A stretch of 32,000 nucleotides of DNA, taken from NCBI GenBank assembly GCA_963692945.1, contig OY843585.1, positions 120,001 through 152,000 of the forward strand. The letters are read 5' to 3'. Positions 3,153 through 7,889 of this stretch are shown one piece after another (positions within the stretch are counted from its first letter, which is position 1; every line of letters begins with the position of its first letter). The translations under genes and the position numbers were made by a program. The notes under the pieces were generated by a model, which made no database searches, was not told the origin of the DNA, and saw only the letters and a list, made by a program, of their open reading frames with translations. This stretch comes from Bdellovibrionales bacterium. GTDB taxonomy: Bacteria > Bdellovibrionota > Bdellovibrionia > Bdellovibrionales > UBA1609.

Positions 3153-3370
3153 TTTACAAAACTCTAATGTTACTCTACTTATTTTCTGACCTTTCATCGT
3201 AAGAGGGACACTCTTCAAGTTCAGAAAACAAGGAGGGGTATTCTTAGAGAAAAACTGATGTTTTTCGCATATTAGTTTAGGAGTTTTCATCGTAAAAGGG
3301 GACACTCTTCAAATCTCGTTAAAATAAGAGTTATGTAACAGTCTTATGTTTGAACTAGAGTTTTTGAAAA
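3153..3370 (+). repeat. Composite copy (two cores) of a nested-inverted-repeat element
   Basis: Left TIR TTTACAAAACTCTAATGTTA (3153-3172), right TIR TGAACTAGAGTTTTTGAAAA (3351-3370). Two conserved cores at 3192-3219 and 3284-3313. 3306-3331 is identical (26/26) to 7826-7851. Confidence 0.8.
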
Positions 3371-3954
3371 GCTTTGGGTTTAAAACCCTGCCTATTAACA
3401 ATACTGGAACTGCTTCCTGTCGCTCTTATCACAAACAAACCCTCTTTCTCAGCTCTTCTGTCAGAAGATTGGTTGGCTTTTAAATACGCAACGGCTCCAT
3501 AAACTTTTTTACCTTTAAATTCTGGCATAAAATCCGTAACTCTATTTAATTTCTTAATGAAATAATTCAACTCTTTAATATACAAAGTTGTTTTCACTTC
3601 TACAACAACGAGCTCCTCCCCGTTGAGAGCCAAAATATCAAATTCAAATTGTTGTTCCCCATGTTTTTTCACTATATTTGTTGCAGTCCGATCAACTTTG
3701 ATACCTTTTTGTTTTAGAAGTTTCACTAAATCTCCTTCAACTAAAGTTTCCATCAACTTACCCCAGTGACCATTGAATTTTAGATCCGTCTCTCTTATTT
3801 GTTTGGCAGTTGCTTTTAGGCTAGCTCGGAGCTCTTTAATATCTTCTGCTGCTTTTTTATCGCGCTCTTCTTGTGCTTTTTTTTGCTCTTTAAAAAGTTG
3901 CCAGATTTCTGCAAAATAAGATTTAGCTTCTAAAACAGTAGATTTATTACTCAT
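3355..3954 (-). CDS. Coiled-coil + PD-(D/E)XK nuclease-fold protein (DUF3782-like), function unknown
   Basis: 199 aa. N-terminal Lys/Glu-rich helix, then HWGK...E104-F-D106-IL...VVV-E119-V-K121, matching the D...(D/E)xK restriction-endonuclease-like motif and the layout I recall for DUF3782 proteins. AGGAGA Shine-Dalgarno (SD) site 5 nt upstream of the ATG at 3954. The stop codon lies inside the repeat TIR. Confidence 0.75.
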   Translation of the reverse strand: MSNKSTVLEAKSYFAEIWQLFKEQKKAQEERDKKAAEDIKELRASLKATAKQIRETDLKFNGHWGKLMETLVEGDLVKLLKQKGIKVDRTATNIVKKHGEQQFEFDILALNGEELVVVEVKTTLYIKELNYFIKKLNRVTDFMPEFKGKKVYGAVAYLKANQSSDRRAEKEGLFVIRATGSSSSIVNRQGFKPKAFQKL

Positions 3955-4025: not shown

Positions 4026-4170
4026 AACAAAACTCTCGTTCATTTAACAAAACTCTAGTTCATTTCTAATACTCTTTTCTTTTTAGGAGATTTTCGTCGT
4101 AGGAGAGATACTCCTCAAACACCTAAAAAGAAAAGAGTTCTTACTTATAGTGAACTAGAGTTTTGTAAAA
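4026..4170 (+). repeat. Nested-inverted-repeat element (archetype copy) with a tandemly duplicated left end
   Basis: Tandem 20-mers AACAAAACTCT(C/A)GTTCATTT at 4026-4045 and 4046-4065. TIR 4043-4062 versus 4151-4170. Perfect 17-bp inner stem 4071-4087 / 4122-4138. Core 4091-4120 with hairpin AGGAG-AGATA-CTCCT (4101-4115). Confidence 0.85.
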
Positions 4171-4180
4171 GCGTCTCTCA

Positions 4181-4342
4181 TGTGGAGGGCTTGTAGATTT
4201 TATTTTTTATCTATTTATGAAAGAAGAAGATATTATTAACTTAGCTAAAGCAAAAAAGCCCTCTGTGGAGGGCTTGTGGATTCTATTTTTTAATTTGATC
4301 TATTTATAAAATGGGAATCAATTATTTATAAAATGGGAATCA
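4181..4342 (+). repeat. Duplicated ~40-bp module plus tandem 20-mer
   Basis: TGTGGAGGGCTTGT(A/G)GATT(T/C)TATTTTTTA...TCTATTTAT occurs at 4181-4218 and 4264-4307. TATTTATAAAATGGGAATCA occurs at 4301-4320 and 4323-4342 (22-bp period). Confidence 0.75.
4251..4275 (-). terminator. Rho-independent terminator for the 4340..5293 gene
   Basis: On the minus strand, AAGCCCTC-CACA-GAGGGCTT followed by TTTTG: 8-bp GC-rich stem, 4-nt loop, T-run. About 65 nt downstream of the stop at 4340. Confidence 0.7.
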
Positions 4343-5293
4343 CCAGCTAGAGTCTGAAAACAATTCAGCTGTTCTTTTCATCACAGCATCTCTCTTCTTT
4401 TTGATTTCCACTAATGCATTCCAATAACTTTCACAAAACTTCCCTTCTAACTTTATAAAATCTTTACAAATCTTTGCTTTGTGAGCTCTCTCATTGTCTA
4501 AATCTCTAACCTCTGCTACAAAGTTTTTCATATTATTACACATCTCTATATATATATCATACAACCCCTTATTCCAATATGGGTTAGAGTTTTGACTACA
4601 ATGGGTAGAGACCTCTTCTAATATATTTAAACTATAAATAGCACCTTGATAATGTCTAATAACAGGAAGCAAAGGAACACCAGTCCCCATACCCTCTTTA
4701 TAACCCGGTGAAGAGCGTTCTAATTGAGCATGATGATCTACAACTTGCAAAAAATACCTGTCAAAATACCCTGATGATATCAAATAAAAAGAAGCCAGTT
4801 CAAATAAATGGTCTTTTTCTAAAAGAGCATAAAGAACTGTAGAACCATCGGTTGAAGTAGCATTAGGATAGTTAGGGATGGATTTAATAAGATCTATAAC
4901 TTCTTTATAAGAGGCTATAGCTGAATCTATGATTTCACTATACCTCACTGTGTCTTCAATATCTCTAAAAGTCCCGTCGGTTGTTATATACCTAGCCATC
5001 ATATAAGCGGGGTAAACCCCTTTTTGATCTTTCCCTTTTATTAAATACTTAAAGGCTTCGTCTTTTTTGCCCCTTAATAACAAACATTTGGCTTTCATAA
5101 CTAAGAGGAGGTGATCTTTAGGTTGATCTTGTAGCTGTCTATCTACATCATTTTCATCTTCACAATCTATTATTAAAGATACACTAGAAAAACCAAAGAT
5201 TAAAAAAAACAGCAAGAAAAGAGTTTTAAAAAAATTCATACTAAAAGTTTTTTTAAAACCTTCCCGATAAACATCCTTGTCCCATAAAACCAT
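4340..5293 (-). CDS. Hypothetical signal-anchored or secreted protein, no recognisable family
   Basis: 317 aa. AAGGAGGT SD 3 nt upstream of the ATG at 5293. Hydrophobic segment FFKTLFLLFFLIFGFSSVSLII after an 18-aa N-terminus. Followed by a terminator. Confidence 0.7.
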   Translation of the reverse strand: MVLWDKDVYREGFKKTFSMNFFKTLFLLFFLIFGFSSVSLIIDCEDENDVDRQLQDQPKDHLLLVMKAKCLLLRGKKDEAFKYLIKGKDQKGVYPAYMMARYITTDGTFRDIEDTVRYSEIIDSAIASYKEVIDLIKSIPNYPNATSTDGSTVLYALLEKDHLFELASFYLISSGYFDRYFLQVVDHHAQLERSSPGYKEGMGTGVPLLPVIRHYQGAIYSLNILEEVSTHCSQNSNPYWNKGLYDIYIEMCNNMKNFVAEVRDLDNERAHKAKICKDFIKLEGKFCESYWNALVEIKKKRDAVMKRTAELFSDSSW

Positions 5294-5604
5294 ATAACCT
5301 CCTTGTATAAGTGTCTCAAAATGAGACTCATTTATATTAAATGATTTTCAAAAAAACACAATGAAAAGCTTCTTCATAAAGGAACTTTCTTTAATTTTAC
5401 AAAAGCAAGTGTTTAAAAACTGAACGGTTTTTGTTCTTTTTCCTTTTTAAAAGGATAAAAATCACTTTTTAAATGAGATTTAAATCCCATTCAATAAAAT
5501 TTAAAAAATCCATTCCAGATAAATTGAAATAAATAATTTATAAATAGAAATATAATAAATTTTTTAACTCCTTTTCCTATTTTTGACGATATAATAATAG
5601 GGCT

Positions 5605-6636
5605 ATGTATTTACAAAAAATTTTAAAGATCTTTGTATTTCTCATGATAAGTCCTTTACCTATAAGTTCAACAGCAAACTGTAATGATCGCAATATATGT
5701 AGACCAGAGACTCCAGCTTCAAGGAAGGGTCAAACGGGGCAGAAAAAGAATGTACCACTTGGTGGTGATAGTCATGATGGTAATCAAAATATAGTTGGAA
5801 CTGACTTTTCTGTAGATCATTATCGCATGGGCCGCTACAATCCACATAAAAAGACAGCCTCACAAACTAATATTATTCCTAATGTTGATGGTAATAATCT
5901 TAAAAAAAAATCTAAGATAGAGCAGATGTTATCCTTTCTTGATAAAGGTACTAGTTATAATCATCATTACGAAGTCTTAGGATATAAAAAATTTATTAAT
6001 ACATACTGTAACGGTTTTACGGAAAATTTAAATGAGATAAAAAAGAATCTAGATTATGAATACAGAGATGGTGAAGGACAAGCAGAAGGTATAGCTACAA
6101 ATCAATTAAAAGAGCTAATAATTGCTTGTAAAGATAAATTGAGCAAATTTGATTCTGGTATAGAAACAATCGAATCAGATCATAAAAAATATGAATCTAT
6201 TAAAGAATTAAATGATCGATGGAAAGAAATAAAAAAATTAAAAAATCAATGCCAAAACAGTTATAATCTGAACAAATCACTACTTAAAAATCGTGAAGAA
6301 GATACATTTAACCATTTTGAAACAGAGATACGCATACGTTTTGAAAATTGTGACATGAATGAATATATAGAAATTTATAAAGAAAAAATCAAAAAACTTA
6401 AAAAGCAAGAAGAAGCCAGATGTAACACCGACATCAACGAACCGGAGGGTTGTATAAAAGAACTCAATGATTTTCTCAAGCCTCTTAAGGGAGAAGGCGA
6501 CACTCTTTTATACAAATGCGGTCACTATCCTGAAACAAAAAAATCTTGTTGCAGTAATCTTGATCAAGAAGACTGTGAACATAAAAAATTTTTTAATACT
6601 TACTTAAAAAAATATAAAAAATCCTCATCAATGTAA
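5605..6636 (+). CDS. Cys-rich secreted protein, N-terminal part (frame 1), ends just after a poly-A frameshift site
   Basis: Signal-peptide-like MYLQKILKIFVFLMISPLPISSTA. Many spaced Cys residues and Lys/Glu-rich helices. Stop at 6634-6636 lies just after the A7 (6606-6612) and A6 (6616-6621) runs. Confidence 0.65.
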   Translation: MYLQKILKIFVFLMISPLPISSTANCNDRNICRPETPASRKGQTGQKKNVPLGGDSHDGNQNIVGTDFSVDHYRMGRYNPHKKTASQTNIIPNVDGNNLKKKSKIEQMLSFLDKGTSYNHHYEVLGYKKFINTYCNGFTENLNEIKKNLDYEYRDGEGQAEGIATNQLKELIIACKDKLSKFDSGIETIESDHKKYESIKELNDRWKEIKKLKNQCQNSYNLNKSLLKNREEDTFNHFETEIRIRFENCDMNEYIEIYKEKIKKLKKQEEARCNTDINEPEGCIKELNDFLKPLKGEGDTLLYKCGHYPETKKSCCSNLDQEDCEHKKFFNTYLKKYKKSSSM

Positions 6637-7768
6637 AAGTAAAGAGCTTTTAGAAAGTAACATATATAATAAAAGAATAGATATCTGTGAAGCTAATGTA
6701 AAACAATGTCATAACACTTGTAATACTGCTCTAGAACAATTCCGTGACAAATTTAAAAGGTGTTTTTATGTTTCCAGTTTTAAAGATGCCGTTAATGAAA
6801 ACTCTAAATGTGAGAAGCACATTGTGAACATCTCTATAAAGTATAAAGAGATTCTAACACAAATTAAAGATAGATTTTTTGATAGCAGTTCTACTAAAAA
6901 ATTGTATGAACCATCAACGGATGAATATTTATTAATTACAAAAGGAGCTTCAATAGATCATTTTCCAAATTGCGAAACAATAATAAACAAAACCATAGAA
7001 AACAACGAGGATAAAATAAAAGCAAGAGCCAAGTTTTATGCAGAACAAGCTTGTTTGGCTAAAAACTCTAAAGACCCTAATAAACCATCGTCAACAGCAA
7101 GTTTAGCAGGTGGTAGCTCAGGTAACAGCCAAGAGGACTCTTCTTCGTATAATGGGTTACCCCCCCCCAATTCTCAACCCCCTTCTTATTCTCAAGGAGG
7201 AACTGGATATAATGTAAGAACGACTTCTAACCCATCAGGAAGTTCTCCATCATCAAGAAATCCTTACAAATCCAATGGCGACCCATACGATTTAGAAAAA
7301 TTCCTTAAAGAAAGAAACAAAATGGCCAAAGACGACGAAACCCCTGATGGTCTTGAAGACACCGACAAAAAAACAAAAGACTTAGTGCCTGGGATAAATG
7401 ATGATAACAAGTTGACGGAAACAGATGAAGAATCAAAAAACAATCTTGCCAGTTCAGCCCTTCAGAAATCTACATCAGAAACACCCTCCGAAACAATGAG
7501 CACATGGCAAACTGTGAAAACAAGATTTTTTGGCTCAAGTTCAAAATCCAAAAAAACAAGTCGTGGTTCTTATTTACCAAAAGGTTTTGGGAAACGAAAC
7601 CTAGCTTCCAATCAAAAACCAGTGACACTAACTCAAACCTATCGTTCTAGAGATTCAGGAACAAAATCACCTATTGGTAGTGCCAATCAAAATATTTTTG
7701 AAATGGTTTCCAACTCCATGAATCATTTCTGTGTTACAAAAATCAAAAACTGTTACACCAGCTTTTAA
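6608..7768 (+). CDS. Continuation of the Cys-rich protein in frame 2 (no credible independent start); Ser/Pro/Gly-rich disordered middle
   Basis: Frame 2 is open from 6608. It has no ATG and only a GTG at 6824 without an SD. The Cys-rich pattern continues (HQCKSK, DICEANVKQCHNTCN, KRCF, SKCEKH). Removing one A in either run fuses 5605..7768 into 720 codons. Confidence 0.6.
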   Translation, partial: KNIKNPHQCKSKELLESNIYNKRIDICEANVKQCHNTCNTALEQFRDKFKRCFYVSSFKDAVNENSKCEKHIVNISIKYKEILTQIKDRFFDSSSTKKLYEPSTDEYLLITKGASIDHFPNCETIINKTIENNEDKIKARAKFYAEQACLAKNSKDPNKPSSTASLAGGSSGNSQEDSSSYNGLPPPNSQPPSYSQGGTGYNVRTTSNPSGSSPSSRNPYKSNGDPYDLEKFLKERNKMAKDDETPDGLEDTDKKTKDLVPGINDDNKLTETDEESKNNLASSALQKSTSETPSETMSTWQTVKTRFFGSSSKSKKTSRGSYLPKGFGKRNLASNQKPVTLTQTYRSRDSGTKSPIGSANQNIFEMVSNSMNHFCVTKIKNCYTSF

Positions 7769-7889
7769 CAAAACTCTAGTGTGTGAATTTTTATTTTCAC
7801 GAGCTTTTCATCGCAAGAGAGACGTTCTTCAAATCTCGTTAAAATAAGAGTAAGAAAATATCTAAGTAACTGAACTAGAGTTTTTTTAA
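7764..7889 (+). repeat. Nested-inverted-repeat element between convergent genes
   Basis: TIRs TTTAACAAAACTCTAGTGTG (7764-7783) and TGAACTAGAGTTTTTTTAA (7871-7889). Inner stem 7791-7803 / 7835-7847 (one mismatch). Core 7805-7833. Confidence 0.85.

Follow-up and report, generated by a model that had tools for sequence, protein, structure and literature searches.

The 29-nt core that occurs four times in the window (G000:C1:120001-152000, the whole 32 000-nt stretch of DNA analysed here) is the centre of a mosaic palindromic repeat of the MITE/ERIC/BIME kind, which has spread recently and is confined to the source genome, a single contig of 1.56 Mb with 31.7% G+C. Covariation among the copies places the paired positions of the core in register with the surrounding palindrome and leaves a bubble of nearly invariant mismatches, within which units have repeatedly been broken and joined to others. 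On balance, we favour the reading in which this bubble acts in cis as a feature for recognition or cutting; it would then be a protein recognition or cleavage site in a family that is, or formerly was, actively mobile.

The core was detected 57 times in the genome with the core pattern, 80 times with a looser regular expression and 91 times with a covariance model. Both strands carry copies, which are irregularly spaced from 123 kb to 1.41 Mb. Matches to the core consensus are expected 0.00 times by chance (100 shuffles), which bears out the preliminary description of the core as a conserved, non-random module. The 10-mer at the unit terminus occurs 150 times against about 10 expected, and the terminus motif was counted 82 times in the source genome and at most once in relatives. 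The core, the terminus motif and the covariance model were searched for in 40-60 relatives, nine same-genus genomes among them: the core pattern had no match in 60 relatives and the covariance model returned one marginal, chance-level match (E 0.006) in 40. The core pattern likewise had no match in public genome and metagenome contig collections, nor did the full element in plasmid and phage collections, and an exact look-up of the SmpB protein for a second strain with empty sites found none. The spread is recent, as dispersed copies share 95-100% identity with some other copy. The repeat is present in 76 of the 1376 intergenic regions (5.5%), with 4 of 80 cores located inside long open reading frames; 26% of cores lie in the gaps between convergent genes, compared with 14% of all intergenic regions. 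The orientation of the core is random with respect to replication (41:39) and weakly biased with respect to the upstream gene (48:32).

The units are non-coding and about 95-130 nt long, with the core at the centre of a long imperfect palindrome. They are built in the order TTACAAAACTCTAG, arm, core, arm' and CTAGAGTTTTGTAA, or more fully (T)TTAC-AAAACTCTAG, left arm, C-TTTTCATCGYAAGAGGGACRCTCTTCAAA-T, right arm and CTAGAG-TTTTGTAA, so that TTACAAAACTCTAG and CTAGAGTTTTGTAA form terminal inverted repeats as in MITEs. Each hairpin has a single asymmetric core, and the right arm has only CAAAT facing the core TTTTCATCG. At least seven arm types can be distinguished, each complementary across the core (TTATTTTAACGAG/CTCGTTAAAATAA, CTTTTCTTTTTAGGAG/CACCTAAAAAGAAAAG and TTATTTTCTGAC/GTTCAGAAAATAA are examples). 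In an alignment (A1) of the 80 copies found with the looser expression, 73 of them distinct, 17 of 20 arm pairs are altered on both sides, and 83% of the arm cells pair, compared with 34-59% when the partner is slid. Whichever strand is folded, intact units have predicted energies of about -46 to -51 kcal/mol. Often a unit is followed by a small hairpin module, B (GAAAACC-TACT-GGTTTTC-GCA). In about 45 further units, termed B-type, B stands where the left arm and the core's 5' third would otherwise be; such units make up tandem mosaics, among them those at 760.9-761.3 kb and 1028.4-1029.1 kb.

The window contains three elements, all on the + strand. E1 (3158-3364) is a composite with two cores, whose layout as read from the sequence begins with the left terminus AAAACTCTAA (3158-3167), an arm, core copy 1 (CTTTCATCGTAAGAGGGACACTCTTCAAG, 3191-3219) and arm', and continues through CTTAGAG (3243-3249) and module B (AAAAACTGATGTTTTTCGCA, 3250-3269) to core copy 2 (TTTTCATCGTAAAAGGGGACACTCTTCAAA, 3284-3313), a right arm that belongs to another type, and finally the right terminus CTAGAGTTTT (3355-3364). 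E2 (4049-4164) is a nearly perfect palindrome of 116 nt with an RNA minimum free energy of about -49 to -51 kcal/mol on either strand; it contains core copy 3 (TTTTCGTCGTAGGAGAGATACTCCTCAAA, 4091-4119), and an extra solo left terminus lies beside it at 4029-4045. E3 (7770-7884) is a chimera in which core copy 4 (TTTTCATCGCAAGAGAGACGTTCTTCAAA, 7805-7833) lies between a left arm of one type and a right arm of another. The preliminary description had located the same four core sequences, with two of the coordinates off by one base. E3 abuts the TAA of the upstream open reading frame, and the TAG of rsmA lies within its right terminus. An island paralogue at 726.8-731 kb lacks the elements and its homology ends exactly at the TAA (7766-7768), which shows that this stop codon is native and that E3 starts at C/AAAACTCTAG. 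The two-gene island itself (window 4176-7768; paralogue G000:C1:726800-731000) encodes a 317-aa protein and a split Cys-rich protein, is 86-92% identical to its paralogue at the nucleotide level and has fewer repeats of a terminator-plus-TTTATAAAATGGG module than the paralogue.

The central stem sequences AAGAG-GGACA-CTCTT, AGGAG-AGATA-CTCCT and AAGAG-AGACG-TTCTT had been read correctly, and from them a conserved 5-bp hairpin was proposed, with a check by covariation over all genomic copies. When this check was run on the 80 copies, it pointed to the register of the surrounding palindrome (i+j=30) instead of the hairpin. The hairpin register (36) has a summed mutual information of 0.18 with two compensated cells, compared with 1.74 and 45 for register 30; the next best register to the latter reaches 0.23 and 15. 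Among the 73 distinct copies, the hairpin pair 11-25 is A-T in 70 and G.T in three, 12-24 is A-T in 58, G.T in nine, G-C in two and mismatched in four, the middle pair 13-23 is G-C in 49 and an unpaired A.C in 24, 14-22 is A-T in 71 and G.T in two, and 15-21 is G-C in 64 and G.T in nine and is never compensated. Compensated change in the hairpin stem is thus limited to one pair in two copies. The T>C change at 4114, which had been taken to compensate A>G at 4102, is matched by G at position 12 in two of its six distinct carriers; in all six, core position 6 (4096) has changed from A to G. A variant that lacks the loop, AGGAG|CTCCT (...GTAGGAG|CTCCTCAAA), occurs at six distant, dispersed loci.

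In the palindrome register, pair 1-29 is T-A in 45 copies and C-G in 15, pair 6-24 is A-T in 64, G-C in six, G.T in three and never mismatched, pair 9-21 is G-C in 63, A-T in eight, G.T in one and mismatched in one, and pair 10-20 is T-A in 52, C-G in 16, T.G in two and mismatched in three, counts that probably reflect only 4-6 compensatory events in the evolution of one genome. Of all column pairs in the core, these four have the highest mutual information (0.49, 0.47, 0.37 and 0.30); no other pair exceeds 0.13. Three of the four compensations are visible in the window alone. Core copy 1, which has two mismatches to the consensus, shows C-G at 1-29, where T-A prevails elsewhere; copy 3 has G-C at 6-24, with A-T at 11-19, and copy 4 has C-G at 10-20, with G.T at 9-21. 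Copy 2, 30 nt long through G13>A and an extra G, has an A.C mismatch in the 5-bp stem and an intact in-register helix. The flanks that had been described as single-stranded are in register with the arms and covary with each other. The pyrimidine-pyrimidine (Y.Y) mismatches T4.C26, C5.T25, T7.C23 and C8.T22 involve eight positions that are all invariant or nearly so, while all indels and nearly all substitutions fall in positions 11-19, the apical loop of the in-register fold. Nearest-neighbour folding of the canonical variant prefers the 5-bp hairpin over the in-register fold; for the common G13>A variant, the minimum free energy structure of the opposite strand is the in-register fold. As a conserved fold, the 5-bp hairpin is poorly supported. 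A separate mini-hairpin formed by the helix 9-11/19-21 (2-3 bp) was also considered, and this helix fits better as a section of the continuous register. The case carries a methodological lesson: a neat local hairpin, backed by a single 'compensatory' change among four copies, proved to be the wrong fold once 80 copies were compared.

When single-stranded, extruded or transcribed, a unit would be expected to form one long imperfect hairpin with the register running straight through the core. T1-3 would pair with A27-29, followed by the bubble of T4.C26, C5.T25, T7.C23 and C8.T22, which would be divided by the covarying pair 6-24 and closed by the covarying pairs 9-21 and 10-20, with the variable, purine-rich loop of positions 11-19 at the apex. 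The bubble would be the cis feature recognised by the putative mobilising or recombining activity of the family, with cutting and joining taking place beside it. A role of this kind would explain why the bubble is constant while the arms turn over, why different arm types have been recombined around it and why elements are joined to one another precisely at 25|26. Such joins are seen at eight junctions of the form ...CTCTT|TTACAAAACTCTAG, in which the core is cut at 25|26, inside the bubble, and continues with the left terminus of another unit. Left and right arms of non-matching types flank the core in 19 of the 73 distinct copies, and the point of exchange must therefore lie in or beside the core. 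No consistent direct repeat was found as a target-site duplication at 36 paired ends, where the inverted repeat runs on into AT-rich flanks; TTTAAC is present on both sides at E3 only. A recognition site in the core had been put forward from the window copies. The invariant unpaired bases and compensated paired bases agree with that proposal, and a nuclease or transposase target was a reasonable guess; the part that is not supported is the 5-bp stem.

A passive repeat without any recognition function, which we regard as unlikely, would account for the same core in another way: the core would be constant owing to recent expansion from one master copy, and the compensations would arise not by selection but because one arm of a quasi-palindrome serves as the template for correcting the other, through template switching or hairpin mismatch repair. 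The close identity of the copies to one another, the presence of the family in one genome only and the few events behind each covarying pair are all consistent with this, as is the symmetry of G.T and A.C mispairs, which is expected of a process at the DNA level. However, the arms have diverged into at least seven types that differ in many places while the eight mismatch positions have barely changed, and templated correction should have removed the four mismatches, yet they are invariant. The site-specific breakpoints also speak against a passive repeat.

As a possible partner of the core hairpin, the preliminary description suggested the protein encoded at 3355-3954 on the - strand, a Hjc-like PD-(D/E)XK nuclease (PF01870, 33.8 bits against a cut-off of 21.1) whose last codons and stop lie in the E1 terminus. 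The genome holds five copies of this gene with 83-91% amino-acid identity; all five end inside an element terminus and four of the five have elements on both sides, although elements occupy just one in eighteen or so of all intergenic regions. Two intact genes for YhgA-like Transposase_31 proteins, also of the PD-(D/E)XK type, are bracketed by repeats as well (337911-338966, + strand, and 1143081-1144124, - strand); short fragments of the Transposase_31 family adjoin both. The bubble could accordingly be the recognition or cutting site of a non-DDE, non-HUH mobilisation in which the Hjc-like nuclease with its four paralogues, or a YhgA-like protein, recognises and mobilises the folded or cruciform repeat as RAYTs do REPINs, an arrangement that we consider rather improbable. 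A structure-specific nuclease is a plausible partner, Hjc being a Holliday-junction resolvase, and conventional transposases are absent among the families searched. Such nucleases, acting on an extruded hairpin or cruciform, could form a REPIN/RAYT-like replicator with a different enzyme.

The distribution of the nuclease family argues against this partnership. The family has 2278 homologues in public proteins and, in 14 of 60 relatives, which all lack the repeat, is present in several copies (3-22 matches), so the proposed tie to the 3355-3954 protein is not borne out. The gene ends in ...FKPK(A/I/V)FS* in the relatives, and fusion to the terminus is therefore secondary in the source genome. 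Sixteen other, unrelated genes are bracketed by elements too, and the outer ends of the elements point toward the gene. A nuclease-linked dispersed repeat in one relative, G017, was pursued and dropped, since the conserved 3' flank of the nuclease there occurs only beside the gene, with no dispersed copies. In G017, the same ~60-nt 3' flank with a hairpin, CTTTTGTAGCATAAGGTTCCGGAAGAGATCTCCAAAAG, follows most copies of the Hjc-like gene (L050-L060), and gene and flank together look like a small mobile cassette. For the source genome, the possible link between the repeat and the adjacent Hjc-like nuclease is at most suggestive.

Other mobilising enzymes were looked for in six-frame searches of the genome, which found no Y1/HUH, rve, DDE_Tnp_1, DDE_3 or TnpB protein; RAYT/Y1 (PF01797) had no match at E <= 0.01, with control genomes responding. 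With no parent insertion sequence or transposase among the families searched, mobility is deduced from the dispersal and identity of the copies alone. A classical DDE MITE was rejected for the lack of rve, DDE_Tnp_1 and DDE_3, and single-strand transposition of the IS200/IS605 or RAYT type for the lack of Y1, TnpB and a replication-strand bias. Retro-mobilisation was considered and dropped; the sole reverse transcriptase is far from any element. This 588-aa open reading frame (G000:C1:1379518-1381284, - strand; C-terminal RVT_1, 77 bits; N-terminal half unassigned), which is flanked by similar short repeats (…TCGTGATTTCCGAAAAAATCACT…AATCACTGCAAAAAT…), is probably a reverse transcriptase of the defence or retron type. 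The genome also encodes three tyrosine recombinases: one XerC-like, one XerD-like and one phage-type integrase.

A role of the core at the RNA level in a transcribed + strand, as a small-RNA module or processing site, both among the initial suggestions, or as part of a terminator, appears to us about as improbable as mobilisation by the nucleases. The + strand had been taken as the RNA on the basis of one G.T pair in copy 4. Across the genome, G.T and A.C mispairs are equally frequent, with 39 and 35 in intact arms and 23 and 28 in the 5-bp stem; as A.C corresponds to G.T on the other strand, there is no strand signal of that kind and no excess of G.U-compatible mispairs on the + strand. Read on the opposite strand, the four Y.Y mismatches form two tandem 5'-GA-3'/3'-AG-5' motifs, one on each side of pair 6-24, and pair 11-19, A.C on the top strand in 59 of 73 copies, becomes a G.T wobble. 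Stacking of tandem sheared G.A pairs is favourable in DNA as well as in RNA. On the bottom strand such pairs would account for the upkeep of the otherwise isolated pair 6-24, as far as can be judged from the sequence, and the better-folding strand, if it is either, would be the one opposite to that initially proposed.

Seventeen units lie next to a tRNA gene or to a displaced tRNA 3' end, and every one of them has the core in the tRNA sense; the arm types differ among these units, which therefore represent separate events. Such an orientation bias would not be predicted for a symmetric DNA transposon and hints at an RNA-level or transcription-coupled constraint. The excess of cores between convergent genes and the form of the unit, a long hairpin followed by TTTT on both strands, are also in keeping with a transcribed function. 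Against it stand the orientations of the cores relative to upstream genes and to replication, the stem proposed initially, which is broken in a quarter to a third of copies, and the lack of conservation beyond the source genome. Rfam 15 at the gathering score has no match in the window, and around another copy the tRNA alone matches. Neighbouring genes have their own canonical terminators, e.g. at 4256-4275, and a simple terminator scan did not call the elements and found separate canonical terminators nearby. The duplicated, GC-rich terminator hairpins at 4256-4275 (- strand) and 4170-4200 (AAGCCCTCCACAGAGGGCTT followed by TTTTG) sit between the gene for the 317-aa protein and E2, and termination of these genes is therefore independent of the repeat. 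By-eye comparison of the core with consensus sequences for IHF sites and promoters gave no convincing match.

The neighbourhood of tRNA genes has other features. Outside the window, inserts of roughly 170-430 nt that contain no genes lie directly after tRNA genes (G000:C1:184750-185030, 917770-918315, 972640-973079 and 1028482-1028740), in one case stacked in tandem. Each ends in a copy of the last ~21 nt of that tRNA plus CCATTTAC. In some of them a 23-nt sequence, CTTGCGACTTTAGGAGCAAATCA, is repeated in tandem, with up to nine copies, and the hairpin repeat comes after the displaced tRNA end. In the same-genus genome G003, the tRNA trailers carry other, species-specific repeats, with at least three families in the 3' flanks (L076-L105; e.g. 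...CATTTCAGGAAATGTCGGGGTATTTCAAGCCCCCGTG... and ...GGTCTATTCTGGAGACATACTTTACAC...), none of which is related to the hairpin repeat. With repeats at this position in both genomes, tRNA trailers look like a general landing zone in the genus.

A CRISPR-like repeat or an integron attC-like recombination site can be set aside with little hesitation: the core on the minus strand does resemble a stem-loop with a tail, the pair of unit termini ACAAAAC...GTTTTGT is loosely similar to the attC R''/R' boxes RYYYAAC/GTTRRRY (five of seven positions each) and the elements come after genes, but there is no regular repeat-spacer array, the copies are irregularly spaced over 1.4 Mb on both strands with every core embedded in a palindrome, and the integron-integrase models score far below their cut-offs against the tyrosine recombinases (TIGR02249, 110-115 bits against 265).

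The hairpin repeat shares features with several known systems. Integron attC sites are imperfect palindromes at the 3' ends of genes that vary in sequence while keeping their fold and their unpaired or extrahelical bases, which mark the strand and the cleavage site. In the hairpin repeat too, the sequence varies while the fold and the unpaired bases persist; in contrast to attC, whose centre is the variable part, its centre is conserved, its copies are dispersed and neither an integron integrase nor a cassette array accompanies it. In IS200/IS605 elements, the subterminal hairpins are recognised as folded single strands with conserved irregularities, and joining takes place at a fixed adjacent position without target duplication. 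The hairpin repeat differs in its symmetric inverted-repeat termini and in its even orientation with respect to replication, and no TnpA (Y1) or TnpB was found with it.

REP sequences are palindromes of 20-40 bp with an unpaired GTAG or CGTC tag (PMC3733652). These tags are present in 11 (GTAG) and nine (CGTC) of the 73 distinct cores, the majority having GTAA or CATC. As in the REP, BIME and REPIN-RAYT systems (PMC3116915, PMC3733652), extragenic palindromes are combined with short motifs into mosaics, in which module B and the B-type units act as BIME linker motifs would, unpaired conserved bases lie beside a stem and a nuclease gene is flanked by repeats. Unlike REPIN-RAYT systems, the source genome has no RAYT/Y1 transposase, and each unit has one asymmetric centre in place of two inverted REPs, with long, AT-rich stems. 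There is a likeness, too, to ERIC/IRU of the Enterobacteriaceae (imperfect palindromes of about 127 bp) and Correia/NEMIS of Neisseria, which are bacterial MITEs (PMC3184786). Like these, the hairpin repeat is non-coding, roughly 100-150 bp long and bounded by terminal inverted repeats, with the whole unit forming a long stem-loop; it is intergenic, often directly after genes, is present in dozens to hundreds of copies and has size variants that stem from events at fixed internal sites. It differs from them in its centre, an invariant mismatch bubble, in its mutually complementary arm types, of which there are at least seven, and in its confinement to one species-level genome, and neither a TA or other target duplication nor, among the families searched, a cognate insertion sequence or transposase was found for it. 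It thus fits the definition of a MITE apart from two points, a target duplication that can be demonstrated and a cognate transposase. The repeat does not belong to the REPIN/RAYT, attC, CRISPR or IS200/IS605 systems and is an undescribed family of a familiar kind of small palindromic, selfish or structural repeat (ERIC, Correia and BIME-type mosaics).

The family sits in a reduced, AT-rich genome. It is useful mainly for strain typing, for marking accessory islands and for annotation, as gene ends extend into its termini, which provide stop codons. Should the bubble prove to be a true recognition site, the hairpin repeat would offer a tractable case for studying how REP-, ERIC- and CGTC-type repeats without a dedicated transposase are propagated, and would allow the role of multicopy PD-(D/E)XK nucleases in this process to be tested.
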